35,415 nucleotides of DNA, from the IMG/VR virus record IMGVR_UViG_2711768052_000009; one strand, written 5' to 3'. The notes beneath the pieces were generated by a model. That model was not told the origin of the DNA and did not search any database. It saw only the letters and a program-made list of their open reading frames with translations. The position numbers and the translations under genes are program-made. This stretch comes from a virus. Lineage: Duplodnaviria > Heunggongvirae > Uroviricota > Caudoviricetes. Shown here piece after piece: positions 14,872 through 22,428 of the stretch (its first letter is position 1; every line of letters starts with the position of its first letter).

Positions 14872-15071
14872 CGTAACCTGTCGGATCGCCGGAAAGGACC
14901 CGCAAAAATGATAATAATTATCATCTACATGTCACAACGTGCATCTACGCCATCAAACCACGTCAAATAATCAATTATGACGCAGGTATCGTATTAATTG
15001 ATCTGCATCAACTTAACGTAAAAACAACTTCAGACAATACAAATCAGCGACACTGAATACGGGGCAACCTC

Positions 15072-15266
15072 ATGTCAACGAAGAACAGAACCCGCAGAAC
15101 AACAACCCGCAACATCCGCTTTCCTAACCAAATGATTGAACAAATTAACATCGCTCTTGAGCAAAAAGGGTCTGGGAATTTCTCAGCCTGGGTCATTGAA
15201 GCCTGCCGTCGGAGACTAACGTCAGAAAAGAGAGCATATACATCAATCCAAAGTGATGATGGATGA
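15072..15266 (+). CDS. Small ribbon-helix-helix-like protein (64 aa; possibly DLP12 ylcI-like DUF3950 protein)
   Basis: ATG at 15072; N-terminal basic stretch then IRFPNQMIEQINIALEQKGSGNFSAWVIEACRRRL, compatible with an RHH fold; family assignment is from memory only. Confidence 0.55.
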   Translation: MSTKNRTRRTTTRNIRFPNQMIEQINIALEQKGSGNFSAWVIEACRRRLTSEKRAYTSIQSDDG

Positions 15267-15626
15267 ACATCCCGGTTTCTTCCACCATCGCACCGGAAAA
15301 GCGACTATGAGGGTAACCCTGCGTCTGTCAGCACAGTAAAACCCGGTGTGCATCGTTTTTGATTATTCCCGCACACTCACGCAGAAGGAATTCCCCGTCG
15401 GGCTACGGTCATGGTTAATGCGGGAATACGGCGACGATACAGCGCAGCTAAAAGGGTAATGGACAGATAGAGCGGTTTATTTCATTCCACAGGATTCTGA
15501 GTGCCCCCCCTCCTCCAATAGGCTGAGCATCCACCTATATAGTTTTAATTTTCATCAATCCATTTAACTATCGTTTAATTGTTGTCACATAGGATTCTGC
15601 CGTTTTTAACAATGCAGGATAATAAG

Positions 15627-15920
15627 ATGAAAAAAATGTTGTTTTCTGCCGCTCTGGCAATGCTTATTACAGGATGTGCTCAACAGACGTTTACTGTTGG
15701 AAACAAACCGACAGCAGTAACACCAAAGGAAACCATCACCCATCATTTCTTCGTTTCGGGAATTGGACAGGAGAAAACTGTTGATGCAGCCAAAATTTGT
15801 GGCGGCGCAGAAAATGTTGTTAAAACAGAAACCCAGCAAACATTCGTAAATGGATTTCTCGGTTTTATTACTTTAGGCATTTATACTCCGCTGGAAGCGC
15901 GTGTGTATTGCTCACAATAA
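15627..15920 (+). CDS. bor: Bor lipoprotein (serum-resistance, lysogenic conversion)
   Basis: 97 aa from ATG 15627 (MKKMLFSAALAMLITGC AQQTFTV...); lipobox LITGC; matches lambda Bor; opposite strand to the late genes as in lambda. Confidence 0.9.
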   Translation: MKKMLFSAALAMLITGCAQQTFTVGNKPTAVTPKETITHHFFVSGIGQEKTVDAAKICGGAENVVKTETQQTFVNGFLGFITLGIYTPLEARVYCSQ

Positions 15921-15951
15921 TTGCATGAGTTGCCCATCGATATGGGCAGCT

Positions 15952-16413
15952 CTATCTGCACTGCTCATTAATATACTTCTGGGTTCCTTCCAGTTGTTTT
16001 TGCATAGTGATCAGCCTCTCTCTGAGGGTGAAATAATCCCGTTCAGCGGTGTCTGCCAGTCGGGGGGAGGCTGCATTATCCACGCCGGAGGCGGTGGTGG
16101 CTTCACGCACTGACTGACAGACTGCTTTGATGTGCAACCGACGACGACCAGCGGCAACATCATCACGCAGAGCATCATTTTCAGCTTTCGCATCAGCTAA
16201 CTCCTTCGTGTATTTTGCATCGAGCGCAGCAACATCACGCTGACGCATCTGCATGTCAGTAATTGCCGCGTTCGCCAGCTTCAGTTCTCTGGCATTTTTG
16301 TCGCGCTGGGCTTTGTAGGTAATGGCGTTATCACGGTAATGATTAACAGCCCATGACAGGCAGACGATGATGCAGATAACCAGAGCGGAGATAATCGCGG
16401 TTACTCTGTTCAT
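15952..16413 (-). CDS. Rz: Spanin inner-membrane subunit Rz (i-spanin)
   Basis: 153 aa from ATG 16411-16413 ([40 protein letters not shown]...); matches lambda Rz. Confidence 0.9.
16011..16193 (-). CDS. Rz1: Spanin outer-membrane lipoprotein subunit Rz1 (o-spanin), embedded in Rz +1 frame
   Basis: 60 aa, [24 protein letters not shown]...[16 protein letters not shown]; lipobox VVGC and proline-rich region; lies entirely inside Rz in another frame, as in lambda. Confidence 0.88.
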
Positions 16414-16907
16414 TGCTGACCCCACAAACAGATTTCACGCTCAATCTCACGACGAGTCATGAGACCTTTCCATTGCTTACCGCCAGCATATGTCCAGCGA
16501 CGTAGCTGATCACATGCGCCTTTGATATCGCCCTGGTTTATTTTGCGAAGAAGCGTCGATGTTCTGAAATTGCCAGCACCCACGTTGTAAACGAATGAGT
16601 AAAGAGCGCCGCGCATTGTTTCCGGTATATCGACTTTGATGTACGGGTTAATTTGTCTGGCGACCGTGGCAAGGTCTTTATTCAGGAGGGCTTTGCATTC
16701 TGCTTTGGTATACGTTTTACCGAGCATGATGTCTTTTCCTGTATGCCCGTGACATACAGTCCATACACCAACAATATCTTTGTATGGTATGTAGCTGACA
16801 CCTTCCAGACCATCGTTACCACTTGGGCCAGTGATTAACACTGATGCTATAGCAATTGCTCCGCCACCAATAGCAGCAGCAACGGCTTTTCGTAATGATG
16901 GAGGCAT
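16410..16907 (-). CDS. R: SAR endolysin (phage 21 R-type lysozyme, T4-lysozyme-like fold)
   Basis: 165 aa, [39 protein letters not shown]...; Gly/Ala-rich weakly hydrophobic N-terminal SAR segment; recognised as P21 R21-like, not lambda R transglycosylase. Confidence 0.88.
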
Positions 16908-17122
16908 TATTCACCTCTCGCAGCCTTGCGCTTATCTTCTTTAATCTTGAAATAAAGGTTTGTCAGGTACGTCAGCAGGCCAAATACCAGGCTACCCAGC
17001 ACACCTATTGCTGCCCACTGTGAGGGCGTGACTTTATCGAGCAGCTGTAAAAACCAGTAACCGGCACTACCTGCTGAGGTGCCATAGGCGACACCCGTTG
17101 TTAACTTATCCATGGATTTCAT
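16907..17122 (-). CDS. S: Pinholin S (phage 21 S21 type, dual-start motif)
   Basis: 71 aa from ATG 17120-17122: [71 protein letters not shown]; second in-frame ATG at codon 4 (17111-17113) gives the 68-aa form. Confidence 0.88.
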
Positions 17123-17250
17123 AACCCCACCTCGCAGACAAAGCGGGTGTAAATTGAGGGAATACAACGTATCGCAAAAAAGCAGAAACGTAACAGACTC
17201 GGAGTCAGTGAATAACTCAGGTATTGGGTTATCAGCTAATATCGAGACTC

Positions 17251-17283
17251 AAAAAATGGAAAAACCCGCTCGACGGCGGGTTT
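17251..17283 (-). terminator. Rho-independent terminator-like hairpin upstream of S on the late strand (candidate tR')
   Basis: Minus strand reads AAACCCGCCGTCGAGCGGGTTTTTCCATTTTTTGAG: GC-rich stem followed by a T-run, about 130 nt upstream of the S start. Confidence 0.5.
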
Positions 17284-17710
17284 AAGCTGTGTGACGAAGT
17301 AACCACTCTTAACAGCATAACCAATTTTTTACGTACGTAAACCACAAAATGATATTTGCGAGAATGCTACCGAGTATTGAAAACACCACTACAAATACAT
17401 AAGCAAATCTCAACAAATAACCAACAAATAATTTCCAGTGTTATTTTTAGCCGATTTAAATTGAACCTTCAAATTACAGAGCACTTATAAATAACAGCCG
17501 TTAATATAAATTGGCTAATAGATTTATTTTTATTCAGCCAAGATCCATGAATAGGATTCGATAGAAAAAAGTTCAGATAAAAATAGAGATCTACTTCACA
17601 AATCAAACGAGAAACCAAAACTTACATCTTGAAATAATCACATTGATTAGATGAATATTTATCGCGCAGTGACATCATTTTTTAATAATAGTTCAAAAAA
17701 AGGGCTCACG

Positions 17711-18793
17711 ATGAAAAAATTAACAGTGGCAATTTCTGCTGTAGCTGCATCAGTACTGATGGCGATGTCTGCTCAGGCAGCTGAAATTTATAATAAAGAC
17801 AGTAACAAGCTGGATCTATATGGGAAAGTTAATGCCAAGCACTACTTCTCCTCTAATGATGCAGATGATGGTGATACTACTTATGCCCGTCTTGGCTTCA
17901 AAGGTGAAACCCAAATCAACGATCAACTGACTGGTTTCGGTCAGTGGGAATATGAATTCAAAGGCAACCGCGCTGAATCTCAAGGCTCCTCCAAAGACAA
18001 AACCCGTCTTGCATTTGCAGGCCTGAAATTCGGGGACTACGGCTCAATCGATTACGGCCGTAACTACGGTGTAGCATATGACATCGGTGCGTGGACTGAC
18101 GTTCTGCCAGAATTCGGTGGCGATACCTGGACCCAAACAGATGTGTTCATGACTGGTCGCACCACTGGTGTTGCAACTTATCGTAACAACGACTTCTTTG
18201 GTCTGGTTGATGGTCTGAACTTTGCTGCTCAGTATCAGGGTAAAAATGACCGCACTGACGTAACTGAAGCTAATGGTGATGGTTTCGGTTTCTCCACTAC
18301 TTATGAGTATGAAGGATTCGGTGTAGGTGCAACCTATGCTAAATCTGACCGCACTAATAATCAGGTTATCTACGGTAACAACAGCCTGAATGCATCTGGT
18401 CAAAATGCTGAAGTATGGGCAGCTGGTCTGAAATATGATGCGAACAACATCTATCTGGCTACCACCTATTCTGAAACCCAGAACATGACTGTTTTTGGTA
18501 ATAACCATATTGCCAACAAAGCACAAAACTTCGAAGTAGTTGCACAATATCAGTTCGACTTCGGTCTGCGTCCGTCCGTTGCTTACCTGCAATCTAAAGG
18601 AAAAGACTTGGGTGCGTGGGGTGATCAGGACCTGGTTGAATATATTGATGTAGGTGCAACCTATTACTTCAACAAAAATATGTCCACTTTTGTTGATTAC
18701 AAAATCAACCTGATTGATAAGAGCGATTTCACGAAAGCATCTGGCGTTGCTACCGATGATATCGTTGCTGTAGGTATGGTTTACCAGTTCTAA
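17711..18793 (+). CDS. nmpC: OmpC-family outer-membrane porin (NmpC/Lc-like), intact
   Basis: 360 aa from ATG 17711: [47 protein letters not shown]...VGMVYQF; signal peptide and C-terminal aromatic residue typical of general porins; position between Q and S on the opposite strand as in DLP12 / PA-2. Confidence 0.88.
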
Positions 18794-18929
18794 TTTGATT
18801 ACTAAAAGATATGTTGCGGGAGGCTTTGCCTCCCCAACATATAAGTGGCTCCCTCAAGCCACTTCCTTTAGGAGCACAACCTTGCTTCTAACTATATAAA
18901 CCTTCTGTTATATATTACCCTTTATTTTT

Positions 18930-18954
18930 GGGGGCGTTGCAACGCCCCATTTTT
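18930..18954 (+). terminator. Rho-independent terminator downstream of porin gene
   Basis: GGGGCGTTGCAACGCCCC perfect hairpin (18931-18948) followed by ATTTTTAATAATTTTT; two further hairpins at 18811-18840 and 18843-18864. Confidence 0.75.
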
Positions 18955-18981
18955 AATAATTTTTAGTAAACAATTGGCATA

Positions 18982-19365
18982 TTAATTAGAGTTATTAACA
19001 ACGATATCCATCTCTAACCGGATATCTAATGCCATTAACATCCCTTCAATTATGCCCTCAGCCTTCTGTAACCTTTTCCCGATATAACCATCAGAGCAGC
19101 AATGCTTACCTGCTAGTGACATGAATGTCATACCGACTACATAATAATCTACTAATAAATCGTGCAAATCGCTGTTGTTCTTTTTCAGACGGGCCATGCA
19201 CCCGCAAATAATCATCGCGTCATCGTCACAACATTGCGGGCGAGATTTTACTTTTGAAGTAATTAATCCCTTAAAACCGGCGGCAATGGACGACCAGGTC
19301 ACATCTTCATGATTATTAGCCGCCCACGCTCCCCAACGCTCAAGAACCATCTGAATATCACGCAT
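18982..19365 (-). CDS. Q: Late-gene antiterminator Q (DLP12 QuuD / phage 82-type family)
   Basis: 127 aa from ATG 19363-19365: [34 protein letters not shown]...[13 protein letters not shown]...; Cys-rich zinc-binding region; the track ORF starts 5 codons upstream at a TTG. Confidence 0.85.
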
Positions 19366-19450
19366 CAACTTACTCCACAAAAATCAGACCAGAACGCCAA
19401 TTACAAGCAAAAATCAACAAAACAGTATTAGTTGATTGTTATCTCTGACT

Positions 19451-19591
19451 TCATACTCCTGCTCCTGTCAGGGTTTTGGCGTAATTCTTCAGTATTCGGT
19501 AATCGGTCAAAACAGAACCGGGGAAACGATATAAGCGCAGATGCCCCCAGCGGTGGCGAAGAAGTTCTGCCATATAAAACTCAAACATCAT
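19451..19591 (-). CDS. ylcG: Small nin-region protein YlcG-like (46 aa)
   Basis: Not in the ORF track (under 60 aa). ATG at 19589-19591 overlapping the rusA stop (ATGA); translation [46 protein letters not shown]. Confidence 0.65.
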
Positions 19592-19950
19592 TCATTCCCC
19601 ATTTCGGTGATGGTCAGTTCCAGCCTCCCACCTTTGGTAACAGGCATCTTCACAACGCGGTAATCAACGACCTGAGCATCATCCAGCCAGAAACCTGCTT
19701 TGGTGAGTGCGTCAAAAGCGGCTTTTTGCAGATTATCCAGGTCACGGCGACGGCGATCCGGCATGTGGCACTCAATGCGGATTTTCACAGGCATAGCCAG
19801 GCCGATATCCAGCATTGCGTTTTTAATGATTCGGGCGACGTTATCGCGGTATGCCTGCCCCTCTGCACTGACGTGCGTGCGCCCGCGATTATGGCGGTAA
19901 TAGCGATTATTGCTCGGAGGCCAGGGTAATGTGATACTGTAGGTATTCAC
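19588..19950 (-). CDS. rusA: Holliday junction resolvase RusA
   Basis: 120 aa, (M)[36 protein letters not shown]...; matches DLP12 RusA; GTG start at 19948-19950 overlapping the ybcO stop. Confidence 0.9.
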
Positions 19951-20237
19951 GCCTTAATAACCCCCTCTTTCAGCCAGATAACCTGTGTTCTCGCCATACC
20001 TTCCAGCGCGCATTCTTTTGCATATGCAGCATCGACAAAATGTGTGCGGCGGTCGATTTCGTCGTGGCAGGCAGAACATGCAATGGTGGCAATCAGGTCT
20101 GGCGGTTTGATACCGGTACCGCACAATCCAGCCAGCCGGATATGTGCCAGTACAGACGTTTCAGAATTGCCATTACATACGCCAGGGATTCTTACCTGGC
20201 ATTCCCGACCACGCGCTGCTTTTCTCAAATCAGCCAT
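19947..20237 (-). CDS. ybcO: YbcO-like nin-region protein (DUF1364, putative nuclease)
   Basis: 96 aa from ATG 20235-20237 with GGAGGAAT RBS: [42 protein letters not shown]...[13 protein letters not shown]; Cys/His-rich. Confidence 0.85.
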
Positions 20238-20400
20238 GATTCCTCCTTGCTGCCAGTCGCAACCATTTTTTATCAACCAGGCTAGCGGTATATCCGAGCA
20301 GTGTTGGTATTTCGGATGGCTTCAGCTCAGGCTTACGCTTACGACGATTTGATACTCTGTAGATGTGTCCGTTCATGACACGAATAAGCGGTGTAGCCAT
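20230..20400 (-). CDS. ninE: NinE-like small protein (56 aa)
   Basis: Not in the ORF track. ATG at 20398-20400 preceded by GCAGGAGG, overlapping the ybcN stop; translation [56 protein letters not shown]; its stop overlaps the ybcO start. Confidence 0.7.
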   Translation of the reverse strand: MATPLIRVMNGHIYRVSNRRKRKPELKPSEIPTLLGYTASLVDKKWLRLAARRNHG

Positions 20401-20855
20401 TACGCCTCCTGCTTGTCGCGGAGCAGCTGGAACTCGCAGCTCTGCGGAATAGTCAGGTGGCAGCCAATATTCACCGCCCAGGCTTCAACCTTACACAGGA
20501 AGACATACATCTCTCCGGTATCAAGATCGGAGGTATGGCGTAACGACTGGATAGTGGTGATATCACCGGTTACGACATCAACCAGGTCTTTGGTTTCATA
20601 ACCGAGATATGTGTGTTTGAGAGCATCTTTTACCCAAGCTGGAGTGGCGAACGTTTTACCCCTGCTGATGAGGTATTCACTGATTTCGCTGTACCACATG
20701 TGGCTGAGTGCATTCTGGGAAAGACTGCGTTTCTCACGCCACGGTTTAAGCACCATGCGAAAGCATTTGCCCTCCTCCAGATAAGGCTGGATCTGCCGAC
20801 CGATAGCGGTGAAGTTGCCGCGATGTAATTTGATGCCGTCTTGTGAGAGGTTCAC
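20400..20855 (-). CDS. ybcN: YbcN-like (NinB/Orf-family recombination mediator, DNA base-flipping protein)
   Basis: 151 aa, (M)[47 protein letters not shown]...; GTG start at 20853-20855 with GGAGGTGA RBS. Confidence 0.85.
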
Positions 20856-20953
20856 GCTTCACCTCCGCAGAGGTCAAACGCTAGATGCAAAGAATTGCAG
20901 GTGCATTTCTGCATCTGTGAAGGGAGAAGAGAGTTTGGATTGTATGTGCGCAT
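20852..20953 (-). CDS. ylcH: YlcH-like small protein (33 aa)
   Basis: Not in the ORF track. ATG at 20951-20953; translation [33 protein letters not shown]; stop overlaps the ybcN GTG start. Confidence 0.55.
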
Positions 20954-21069
20954 AAACGTCCCCGTTTAGCGCAGAAGTCACCGGAGTTGTTCAGGCTCCG
21001 GTGACATAATTATGCCGTGTTGATTTCCCAAAATCAAAATCGATAGAATTGCTCCTTCTTAAAACACTT

Positions 21070-21867
21070 TTACTCTCTGGAAGCTTTTCTTATCTCTCTT
21101 GGTGTTATATTAAAACGATTATGAAATCTTTCAGTAAAACGAGAAGGACACTTATAACCATTTTCTCTGGCAATCTCGCTTATAGGTTTTACCGTCGTTT
21201 GTATAGCAGACAACGCATTATTTAACCTCACATCGTCCAGTATACTTTGGAAACTTACCCCCTCGCTTGCTAGACGGCGATGTAATGTAGAAACAGAAAT
21301 GTAGAGATATCGAGCAACCTTGTTTGCTGTCCATTTTGTGCCGGGTTCGGATAGCAGCAGGTTATAACAACGACTTATCAATGATTGTTTACTATATGAT
21401 AAAAGTAAATGATTAACATGATTCACTCCTAACGAAAGTAGAACGCCCATTGCTAAGTGCTCCTGAATTTTAGTTGAGAAGCCTCGGGAAACAGATGTTT
21501 TTAGTTGCTCCCAACAATATATTAACTCAGGATTCTGAGGTAAAAATAAACTTGTTTTGTTACGTATTTGATCAGTTACCGTATAAAGTTTTTGGAAACT
21601 CTCAATTAAATCAATGGGTAAGTAAAGCATTTCTGCAAGATAAAGCCCTGCTTCAGGATAATTCTCAATATAAAATTCATAACCACAAGGAAATAATATT
21701 ATTTGATTATTATCAACAGTTAAAGTATGCGTCTCCCAATTGATAACTTTCTTTCCCTGACGGATACGACACAAAGCTGGCATAAGAGGCTTAACCCTAT
21801 GAATCTCATGATGTTTATGCATCCGTATTTCTTCGATCTTTAAGTTAGTCTTACCTCTTGCCAGCAT
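21070..21867 (-). CDS. ybcM: AraC/XylS-family transcriptional regulator (YbcM-like)
   Basis: 265 aa; C-terminal AraC-type HTH ([45 protein letters not shown]...); AT-rich coding sequence. Confidence 0.88.
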
Positions 21868-21876
21868 ACTCTCACC

Positions 21877-22428
21877 CTACTTTATCTCATAAACTGGTGT
21901 TATCTCAGCGGTTGCGATTTTATTAGCATTAAGCATATAACCAACTAACGCTCCGCTGGAGTTAGAATCTACAGGAATCTTTTCAGTTTTTAGAGCCCAT
22001 ACTTTAAACTGGTAATGATGTGGTTTATCTCCTTTAGGAGGACATGCGCCACCAAACCCAGCATAGCCAAAATCATTTCGGCCTTGAACAGCACCAGTCG
22101 GCAGTTTTGTTCCATCACGTCTCCCTGCATCAACGGGCAAATATGTTACTGTTGCTGGAATATTAACAACAGTCCAATGCCACCAACCACTGCCTGTAGG
22201 TGCATCTGGATCATATACAGTTACGGCAAAGCTTTTGGTACCTTCAGGAACACCAGACCAGGTTAATGAGGGCGATGTATTACCACCTTCACACCCAAAT
22301 CCAGAAAAGACATGAGACGTTGTAAGTTGCTCTCCTGTTTTTATTTCATTACTAGTGACCTGAAATGCTGCAGCCTGCGCAGAAAATGTTATGAATGCCA
22401 ATACAGTTGAAACGATAAGTGTTTTCAT
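21877..22428 (-). CDS. ybcL: Periplasmic PEBP/RKIP-family protein (YbcL-like)
   Basis: 183 aa with signal peptide MKTLIVSTVLAFITFSAQAAA; PEBP-like motifs (YDPDAP...GWWHW...PPKGDKPHHYQFKVWAL). Confidence 0.88.
   Translation of the reverse strand: MKTLIVSTVLAFITFSAQAAAFQVTSNEIKTGEQLTTSHVFSGFGCEGGNTSPSLTWSGVPEGTKSFAVTVYDPDAPTGSGWWHWTVVNIPATVTYLPVDAGRRDGTKLPTGAVQGRNDFGYAGFGGACPPKGDKPHHYQFKVWALKTEKIPVDSNSSGALVGYMLNANKIATAEITPVYEIK

Follow-up and report, generated by a model that had tools for sequence, protein, structure and literature searches.

An intact nmpC/lc porin cassette lies antisense between Q and the lysis genes of a lambdoid prophage, probably upstream of the late promoter

Results

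The window, which is the whole 35,415-nucleotide stretch of IMG/VR record IMGVR_UViG_2711768052_000009 analysed here, contains the nmpC/lc porin cassette known from lambdoid prophages of the DLP12/PA-2 type, placed antisense between Q and an S21-type holin gene. On the minus strand, the QuuD-like late antiterminator gene Q (18982-19365) encodes 127 amino acids from an ATG at 19365; the mechanically called open reading frame starts at a TTG at 19380 and has 132. Q matches PF06530 (E=4e-53), named the Q21/Q933W family elsewhere (bioRxiv 10.1101/651190), and is 99.5% identical in DNA to K-12 quuD and 78% identical in amino acids to Q933W, also a PF06530 protein, while the match to the solved Q21 structure is distant (E=7e-7). 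The sequence shared with other Q genes stops after GAGATGGAT (19014-19006). On the far side of the porin, a leader (17123-17250, minus strand; 16 bp of it are absent in K-12) extends from a hairpin to the first late gene, the S21-type pinholin gene S (16907-17122, minus strand; PF04971, E=2e-35). S has a dual start (M-K-S-M), is 98.6% identical to K-12 essD and is followed by a SAR endolysin gene (16410-16907, minus strand; PF00959, E=1e-45).

The porin gene (17711-18793, plus strand) is of the nmpC/lc/ompD lineage and encodes 360 amino acids, with a signal peptide at 17711-17779 and YQF at the C-terminus. The protein covers the whole Pfam Porin_1 model (PF00267, 1-337 of 337, E=3e-153), scores 518 bits against the NCBIfam 'porin OmpC' subfamily (above the cut-off of 484) and aligns end to end with solved OmpC, OmpK36, PhoE and OmpF chains, its residues 24-360 corresponding to residues 1 to ~342 of OmpC, OmpK36 and PhoE (E down to 1e-137). 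A signal peptide, the L3 motif PEFGG and a C-terminal Phe are defining motifs of the general porin family; PEFGG is found here, the chain ends in VYQF with the aromatic Phe last, and the 29-residue N-terminus is identical to the annotated signal peptide and mature N-terminus of Lc. Together with the PF06530 and PF04971 neighbours, these matches bear out the original prediction that an intact porin gene of the OmpC family lies between Q and the lysis genes on the opposite strand. We found no stops, frameshifts or insertion sequences in the gene, and the alignment with nmpC and lc proposed as a check left it uninterrupted. The protein shares 91.4% amino acid identity with PA-2 Lc and with NmpC as reconstructed for K-12, and the differences, including two indels (3 and 2 amino acids), are confined to three blocks of the mature protein. 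The gene is nmpC/lc, a porin gene well known from prophages, here in an intact copy, and as such already known.

After removal of IS5, K-12 DLP12 matches 16400-19500 in one collinear BLAST alignment (94% identity), as does phage PA-2 over 16400-19019 (93%). The gene order shared with DLP12 is rusA, ylcG, quuD, antisense porin, essD, rrrD, rzpD/rzoD and borD, and the non-coding flanks of the porin are 95-100% identical. K-12 nmpC is, as originally proposed, split by an IS5 element (IS5B, after about codon 346, with loss of the C-terminal Phe-ending strand), whereas the window copy is whole; it is also a different allele (360 versus 365 amino acids), and unlike DLP12 the window prophage retains full terminase and head genes. 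In PA-2 (lc, J02580) the cassette is carried by an active phage, with the porin antisense upstream of S21-type lysis genes and with the 5' region, 3' UTR and terminator in common with the window. The cassette alone is present (at least 80% in one contiguous place) in 2,463 of 5,426 complete E. coli genomes (~45%), so an intact copy is not unusual and the IS5-split gene of K-12 is the exception. Q, porin and S occur together (at least 80% in one place) in 2,396 of the 5,426, and 36 phage records, including PA-2 lc and 434B, have the cassette. Outside Escherichia the closest relatives are chromosomal ompD-type porins of Salmonella, Citrobacter and Enterobacter (74-79% amino acid identity, full length), which lack Q or S neighbours and whose loci have no detectable similarity to the 5' region or 3' UTR of the phage cassette.

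The AT-rich 5' region of the porin (17343-17710, plus strand) is 92-99.5% identical to K-12 and PA-2 and includes, at ~17582-17602, a match to the second of the CRP sites in the PA-2 annotation. The GC content of 17300-17700 is 0.265-0.315, compared with 0.42-0.51 in the flanking genes, and a terminator is called on the plus strand at 18931-18948, in agreement with the proposal that the porin has its own AT-rich upstream region and terminator. This upstream GC content of 26-32%, and a consensus scan of the window that called no porin promoter, would also suit a porin that is intact but silent in the lysogen, repressed via the AT-rich upstream region and ordinarily giving no conversion phenotype; a 1998 paper, cited in PMC3333887, at least in its title terms nmpC of E. 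coli B 'quiescent'. We consider such silence doubtful: PA-2 Lc is described as expressed, with a transcript that lowers OmpC (PMC12197685), RybB is reported to target nmpC mRNA (PMC3333887), and conservation is higher in the non-coding flanks (95-100%) than in the porin coding sequence (87-88%), which suggests that the flanks are under selection.

A porin transcript made in the lysogen, the reading we favor, would end in a highly structured 3' UTR (18794-18930, plus strand), homologous to the part of DLP12 and PA-2 from which ipeX arises. The 175-nt fold has an energy of -63.2 kcal/mol (z = -8.8), and none of 200 shuffles was equally stable. Three strong stem-loops abut one another (18809-18842, 18843-18864 and 18868-18891), as the original prediction of three 3' hairpins had it, but they are not the whole series, given that a weak A/U stem (18893-18914) and the terminator follow. 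Identity to both K-12 and PA-2 is 95.4% over 18794-18900 and 96.6% over 18901-18958. Covariation is seen at a single pair, which is C-G in the window, U-A in E. albertii and G.U in L033; no other pair is changed on both sides among these relatives, which are too similar for covariation, and a few rare variants among them disrupt stems. The stretch from the porin stop to the terminator (18794-18958) is 95-97% identical to that of DLP12 and PA-2, and the few substitutions relative to the ipeX sequence lie in loops or turn G.U into A-U. It is there that ipeX is reported to lie (PMC12197685). Castillo-Keller et al. reportedly placed it there in 2006 and reportedly found that PA-2 Lc is expressed and that its transcript lowers OmpC. 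An Rfam scan of 15000-21000 at E<=1 returned a chance miRNA match only; Rfam has no ipeX family. ipeX is described as a 167-nt RNA from DLP12, made within the porin transcript, that controls OmpC (PMC12197685), and lowering of OmpC/OmpF by ipeX transcription is reported for DLP12 and PA-2 (PMC12197685; PMC3333887).

The intrinsic terminator of the porin transcript (18931-18955, plus strand) has the stem GGGGCGT/ACGCCCC, the loop TGCA and then A-TTTTT. Its hairpin, GGGGCGTTGCAACGCCCC at 18931-18948, folds with -13.9 kcal/mol, and the stem is invariant among relatives while the loop varies. The terminator scan calls the plus strand only; on the minus strand CAAAAAUAAAG follows the hairpin and a U-tract is absent, and judged by these features the terminator is one-directional. 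The Q stop codon lies 27 nt beyond its end.

On the late strand, a promoter, leader and hairpin module of the Q933W type occurs once in the window (17342-17251, minus strand), between the porin and S. It is separated from the Q stop by 1,640 nt that hold the porin cassette, and Q is not directly followed by a pR' unit. The inferred late promoter pR' (17314-17341) consists of a -35 hexamer TTTACG (17341-17336), a 16-nt spacer and a -10 hexamer TATGCT (17319-17314). It is 100% identical to K-12 DLP12 and homologous to the 933W promoter annotated at the end of Q, and in Sakai Sp5 the scan called the corresponding hexamers as TTTACG-16-TATCAT. More broadly, 17342-17260 is ~77% identical to a 933W stretch annotated as putative pR' and tR'. 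Next comes a near-invariant leader block, GTTAAGAGTGGTTAC (17299-17313, minus strand; GATAAGAGTGGTTAC in 933W), which is single-copy in the window and holds the predicted late start (~17311-17307) along with TAAGAG(T), a -10-like sequence that is a candidate for a sigma-dependent pause element. In an alignment of eight phages, 14 of the 15 leader-block positions and most of the hairpin are invariant and the flanks are unrelated; hexamers, leader block (14/15) and first hairpin are all conserved between the window and 933W/Sakai Sp5. Phage 21 has the same layout, with -35, QBE, -10, annotated start, the pause element TAAGCTG and terminator in order. As a hexamer, the -10 TATGCT is weak.

The position of the late start in the window is taken by homology from Sakai, where a dRNA-seq start and a Term-seq end are 258 nt apart (PMC7547250), and rests on one offset of +139 that we infer between record versions. 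With that offset, the Sakai starts (PMC7547250) fall where TAAGAG begins in each of the two Stx prophages, and the same single offset makes the 258-nt span in Sp5 and Sp15 fit from the TAAGAG start to the T-run of the second terminator. No relevant report of a late start site in K-12 came up in a literature search. The fragment used to report DLP12 lysis promoter activity corresponds to 17784 to ~17000 of the window, module included; the same study cites Q control of the lysis operon and gives another lysis-cassette start farther upstream, at ~17663 when its primers are mapped onto the window (PMC7918800).

Because the only Q933W-type module has the porin on one side and S on the other, the cassette fills the gap between Q and pR', and late transcription would start downstream of the porin. 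The expectation that late transcription must cross the porin antisense is therefore not upheld: the late promoter is probably beyond the porin, and late transcription across the porin probably does not occur. For such a crossing, pR' would have to follow Q immediately, as in lambda, 21 and 933W, and the late RNA would run through ~1.7 kb of porin antisense to a tR' at 17283-17251. The canonical Q cassette does have pR' directly after Q (bioRxiv 10.1101/651190), Lambda_ev087 has a promoter-like stretch and a terminator there, followed by an antisense lipocalin gene, and neither the terminator scan nor folding gave a late-strand terminator between Q and the porin. However, a consensus scan of the minus strand from the Q stop codon to the porin (18800-18981) gave no promoter-like site, the sole module, carrying the sequence of the Sakai late start, is on the far side of the porin, and a pR'-tR' spacing of 1.7 kb is unlike that of every phage compared, which makes this arrangement highly improbable. 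Early transcription is another matter, as the absence of a late-strand terminator after Q means that N-modified early transcription through Q could cross the porin antisense in lytic growth. Matches to a paQ-like CII site (TTGYN6TTGY) were fewer than expected by chance, with none within Q.

With late transcription starting beyond the porin, the first structure it would meet is the hairpin AAACCCGC-CGTCGA-GCGGGTTT followed by TT-CCA-TTTTTT (17251-17283, minus strand), our best tR' candidate. It has an 8-bp stem and -12.0 kcal/mol, is called by the terminator scan on the minus strand, ends ~50-60 nt past the predicted late start and is kept in 8/8 aligned phages. The earlier suggestion that it is tR' gains from its homology to the 933W copy, annotated as putative tR', and from tR' of phage 21, which has a matching compact layout at the equivalent position. 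The Sakai pR' RNA of 258 nt implies that polymerase reads through the homologous first hairpin, and by analogy termination may be partial, i.e., the hairpin may be leaky. Taken further, the hairpin could be a conserved leader structure that is mostly read through, with the lysis genes held off in some other way or leaky, as the Sakai 3' end at the second terminator (+258, past the homologous hairpin; PMC7547250) and the reported expression and physiological activity of the DLP12 lysis genes in K-12 (PMC7918800) would allow. We think this unlikely, given that the 8-bp stem and U-tract satisfy terminator criteria, that the scan found no other terminator-like site before S and that the tR' of phage 21 occupies the equivalent position; RNAs of ~55 nt would, moreover, easily be missed in standard libraries.

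The distance from the Q stop to the -35 varies among 49 related IMG/VR loci: it is -1 to 10 nt in 6 and 596-2,894 nt in the other 43. The leader-block 15-mer had 79 IMG/VR matches, of which 18 without the downstream hairpin were left out; five of these were inspected and lie inside unrelated coding regions. Some related phages have nothing in the gap, and in others it is occupied by different cargo, mostly antisense, that includes anti-phage defence genes (Kiwa KwaB, an OLD-like ATPase-Toprim protein, an HNH effector and several PADLOC candidate families). Lambda_ev087 was considered as a further occupant and rejected, its lipocalin gene being downstream of both a different promoter and a terminator that directly follow Q. 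Among IMG/VR loci with this porin allele, Q, 3' UTR and porin are retained together in 80/80 and the module in all that reach far enough upstream, and in four of the 80 everything downstream of the hairpin is replaced by Stx-phage sequence. The -35 of 933W and the 3' end of its Q gene overlap, whereas in the window the 1,640-nt gap with the porin cassette intervenes. The 933W cargo (tRNAs and stx2AB) lies downstream of pR', sense and Q-controlled; the cargo of the window precedes pR', is antisense and falls outside Q control.

Discussion

We consider it likely that the porin cassette is carried between Q and pR', outside the late operon, as a late start downstream of the porin would entail. 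The cassette (~17343-18958) would be self-contained, with an AT-rich promoter region, the porin, an ipeX-like 3' UTR and a one-way terminator, and would sit between Q and its target pR', in antisense orientation. Late transcription would start at ~17310 (minus strand), beyond the porin, and without Q would halt at the hairpin and T-run (17283-17251); with Q it would read through into holin, endolysin, spanin and then head genes. In the lysogen the porin would be transcribed from its own promoter, and its terminator would prevent antisense run-on into Q. If PA-2 Lc and DLP12 ipeX are a guide, a new porin would appear in the outer membrane and the 3'-UTR RNA would lower OmpC, and this gain and drop would together alter the receptor supply for incoming phages. 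The original suggestion of a lysogenic-conversion function affecting phage receptors agrees with the literature on ipeX and OmpC (PMC12197685, PMC3333887).

The porin itself is nothing new: nmpC/lc has been studied since the 1970s-80s, and close to half of the complete E. coli genomes have the cassette. The useful correction concerns architecture, given that a cassette between Q and pR', and not within the late operon, should be expressed as a function of the prophage state and be insulated from lytic transcription, with the hairpin before S as the gate of the late operon. More tentatively, the junction of Q and the late promoter in Q933W-type lambdoid phages might be a dedicated slot, usually for antisense, self-contained cargo that would be expressed from the prophage by virtue of its own promoter and terminator and its position outside late transcription; porin-ipeX would then be its commonest 'defence' cargo, acting through a receptor swap. 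This is a reading that we hold as possible, somewhat short of probable. We found no description of such a slot in the searchable literature, although it may be known. The defence genes in the gap of relatives would give a simple rule for finding prophage-expressed cargo in a large group of phages that includes the Shiga-toxin phages. In the 1986 record of PA-2, a CRP site (1067-1087) overlaps the presumed late leader block (1079-1091) on the other strand.

Results and discussion

The window is a lambdoid prophage whose late genes run on the minus strand. Read in order of decreasing coordinate, the region comprises rusA (19588-19950), a ylcG-like ORF, Q (18982-19365, minus; PF06530), a porin gene (17711-18793, plus; Pfam Porin_1), an S21-type pinholin gene, S (16907-17122, minus), a SAR endolysin gene (16410-16907), Rz/Rz1, bor (plus), nu1 and terminase A. 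Two genes upstream of the nin-region genes and on their (minus) strand (21070-22428) encode a 265-aa AraC-family regulator and a YbcL-like protein of 183 aa; going by the K-12 gene order, they are presumably ybcM and ybcL of DLP12.

The porin ORF (360 aa) matches Porin_1 over the entire model in a profile search, scores above the NCBIfam 'porin OmpC' subfamily cut-off, and aligns with solved OmpC, OmpK36, PhoE and OmpF chains from the mature N-terminus through the last residue. The ORF contains no stop, frameshift or insertion sequence, which confirms the original prediction of an intact OmpC-family porin gene lying antisense between Q and the lysis genes. After removal of IS5B and its target duplication from K-12 DLP12, 16400-19500 gives a single collinear alignment with that prophage (94%), and the PA-2 lc record is likewise collinear (93%). 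The difference from K-12 also holds: K-12 nmpC is an annotated pseudogene split by IS5B, whereas the copy in the window is uninterrupted. Phage 434B, which took up a DLP12 segment, has the IS5B insertion as in K-12, after codon 346 (PMC9119081).

At the protein level, the porin shares 91.4% identity with reconstructed NmpC, and likewise with Lc. The first ~170 residues are almost identical, and the differences, including two indels (3 and 2 aa), cluster in three blocks of the mature protein that, by comparison with solved porins, are probably surface loops. The non-coding flanks (17343-17710 and 18794-18958) are 95-100% identical to K-12 and PA-2 but the coding sequence (17711-18793) only 87-88%, hence conservation is higher in the regulatory DNA than in the exposed parts of the protein, a pattern suggestive of diversifying selection or recombination in exposed loops that adjoin conserved regulatory DNA.

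The 175 nt 3' of the porin stop fold at -63.2 kcal/mol (z = -8.8 versus shuffled controls) into three abutting stem-loops, a weak A/U stem and a terminator. The terminator (GGGGCGT-TGCA-ACGCCCC plus T-run) is called on the plus strand only; on the minus strand its hairpin is followed by A-rich sequence. Covariation is thin: one closing pair is C-G in the window, and is replaced by U-A in E. albertii and by G.U in one IMG/VR variant. The remaining common changes lie in loops or turn G.U into A-U, and stems are disrupted in a few rare variants. The 3' UTR is 95-97% identical to DLP12 and PA-2 sequence. Castillo-Keller et al. 2006 reportedly placed ipeX between the nmpC stop and its terminator, with identical sequence after lc. 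The 167-nt DLP12 RNA ipeX is part of the porin transcript, is processed out of it and lowers OmpC (PMC12197685); it is also cited as an ompC regulator (PMC3333887).

An intact copy is the norm. The cassette alone (17343-18958), at 80% or more of its length in one contiguous place, occurs in 2,463 of 5,426 complete E. coli genomes, and Q-porin-S, likewise at 80% or more in one place, in 2,396; 36 phage records carry the cassette, and 461 IMG/VR stretches encode a relative. The gene is ordinary and already known. Outside Escherichia, it is most closely related to chromosomal ompD-type genes found in Citrobacter, Enterobacter and Salmonella (74-79% aa identity); in those loci, no similarity to the 5' region or 3' UTR of the cassette was detected, and neither Q nor S is nearby. 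The cassette flanks are common to E. coli and E. albertii only. E. albertii NBRC 107761 (L111, 231-2700) has the porin (~89% aa identity) and 3' UTR (88% DNA identity) in a prophage remnant, with bor upstream and a Q C-terminus fragment followed by host genes (ycgN-like) downstream; the pR' module and lysis genes are absent from that stretch.

It had also been proposed that late transcription from a Q-dependent promoter must cross the porin antisense. This is not supported, as a unique 933W-type pR' module (17342-17251, minus) lies on the S side of the porin. In a sensitive search with the porin-S spacer as query, 17342-17260 (minus) matches ~300 Stx and other lambdoid phages, and in 933W the match falls exactly on the 'putative pR'' and 'putative tR'' annotations at the end of Q. 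The window Q is 78% identical to Q933W, and both contain PF06530, named the Q21/Q933W family (bioRxiv 10.1101/651190). Across an alignment of eight phages (window, K-12, 933W, SfII, PhiR55_1, mEp460, 1720a-02 and Stx2_499), 14 of 15 positions of the block GTTAAGAGTGGTTAC are invariant, as is most of the hairpin AAACCCGCCG...GCGGGTTTT, while the sequence surrounding both is unrelated. The block occurs once in the window and once in every compared locus but Lambda_ev087. The putative -35 (TTTACG, 17341-17336, minus) and -10 (TATGCT, 17319-17314, minus) are separated by 16 nt; a consensus scan picked up the equivalent pair in Sakai Sp5 and, in the window, called no late-strand promoter-like site from the Q stop to the porin.

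For DLP12, the lysis genes have been described as a single operon under the control of the prophage's Q, RpoE and Hha (PMC7918800, citing Rueggeberg et al. 2013 and 2015). The reporter fragment in PMC7918800 corresponds to window 17784 to ~17000 and contains the module, so a promoter between nmpC and essD was already accepted for DLP12; the only addition here is the tie, based on sequence, of that promoter to a 933W-type pR'. In the 1986 PA-2 record (J02580), an annotated CRP-binding site (1067-1087) overlaps the leader block (1079-1091) on the opposite strand, and may be a misread pR' module.

In both Sakai Stx prophages, the pR' start (dRNA-seq) and an RNA 3' end (Term-seq) are 258 nt apart (Sy et al., PMC7547250). 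The published coordinates refer to an older record version, for which we inferred a single offset of +139. With it, the two starts coincide with the initial bases of TAAGAG within the conserved block and the two 3' ends lie in the T-run of a second terminator, one value suiting two loci 1.66 Mb apart. By analogy, late transcription in the window would start at ~17311-17307. The layout is that of the curated phage 21 module, in which -35, Q-binding element, -10, start, pause element (TAAGCTG) and terminator lie within ~85 bp, and the pause element has its obvious candidate counterpart in TAAGAG(T) at the predicted start.

The hairpin and T-run at 17283-17251, suggested earlier as tR', gain support: they qualify as a terminator (-12.0 kcal/mol), are the sole such site from the predicted start to S, and, as in phage 21, would leave a leader 50-60 nt long. 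However, the reported Sakai RNA (258 nt) extends past the homologous hairpin, which is either leaky there or yields a short product that was missed. Two terminator-like hairpins follow pR' in the Sakai Stx phages (866-897 and 1072-1104 in the Sp5 locus, L012; also in Sp15, L173). The 258-nt StxS precursor ends at the second, and the first is undiscussed in that paper (PMC7547250); located at ~+27 to +54, it is conserved in all phages compared, and a ~55-nt leader RNA may have gone unnoticed in Sakai. Between hairpin and holin start (17123-17259), K-12 DLP12 lacks 16 bp (the CGTATCGCAAAAAAGCA region) that are present in the window and PA-2; identity to the window over this stretch is ~88% in some IMG/VR loci and 99-100% in the others, consistent with two alleles.

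The original interpretation is partly right. Porin transcription in the lysogen would begin in the gene's own AT-rich promoter region, where a putative CRP site is annotated in the PA-2 record, and end at the one-way terminator 27 nt short of the Q stop, leaving Q shielded from antisense transcription. From the 3' UTR, ipeX would be released and would lower OmpC, while the new porin would maintain membrane permeability and change receptor availability. Transcription from pR' would be constitutive and halt at the hairpin before S. Upon induction, Q would load at pR' and take polymerase past the hairpin into S, R, Rz and beyond. Late transcription would not need to traverse the porin, with N-modified early transcription exiting Q the only possible exception.

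A by-product of the analysis concerns the gap between Q and pR'. Q-gene homology breaks off directly after GAGATGGAT (19014-19006) and is regained at the -35, hence the variable segment is 17343-19005. We surveyed the IMG/VR loci with the exact 15-mer (n = 79, L174-L252); 61 also have the hairpin, and 49 of these a same-strand upstream PF06530 Q. In 6 loci the Q stop and the -35 are -1 to 10 nt apart, and in 43 they are 596-2,894 nt apart, the latter falling into ~20 distinct length classes with at least 14 cargo types (porin in ~19 of 43). In every length class except two, the longest cargo ORF is antisense. Anti-phage defence models matched KwaB of Kiwa (E = 2e-150), an HNH effector (PDC-M68A), PDC-S42, an OLD-like ATPase-Toprim protein (HEC-04) and PDC-M53A (SfII_50), the three PDC entries being PADLOC candidate families; the porin itself has no match in PADLOC. 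Among Q933W-type lambdoid phages (IMG/VR loci L174-L252 and phage loci L006, L007 and L008), some have nothing in this gap and others carry 0.6-2.9 kb of cargo there, mostly antisense; from sequence comparison, the gap resembles a hotspot for defence genes and other cargo. The slot is of modest interest and may or may not have been described already. Where the cargo is the window's porin allele, Q-3'UTR-porin is kept in all 80 IMG/VR loci, as is the module in all of those extending far enough upstream. In four of the 80 (L032, L033, L053 and L071), the cassette and Q are joined not to S21-type lysis genes but to Stx-phage sequence (StxS-like region, second terminator and tRNA genes), and the recombination joint lies directly after the first hairpin.
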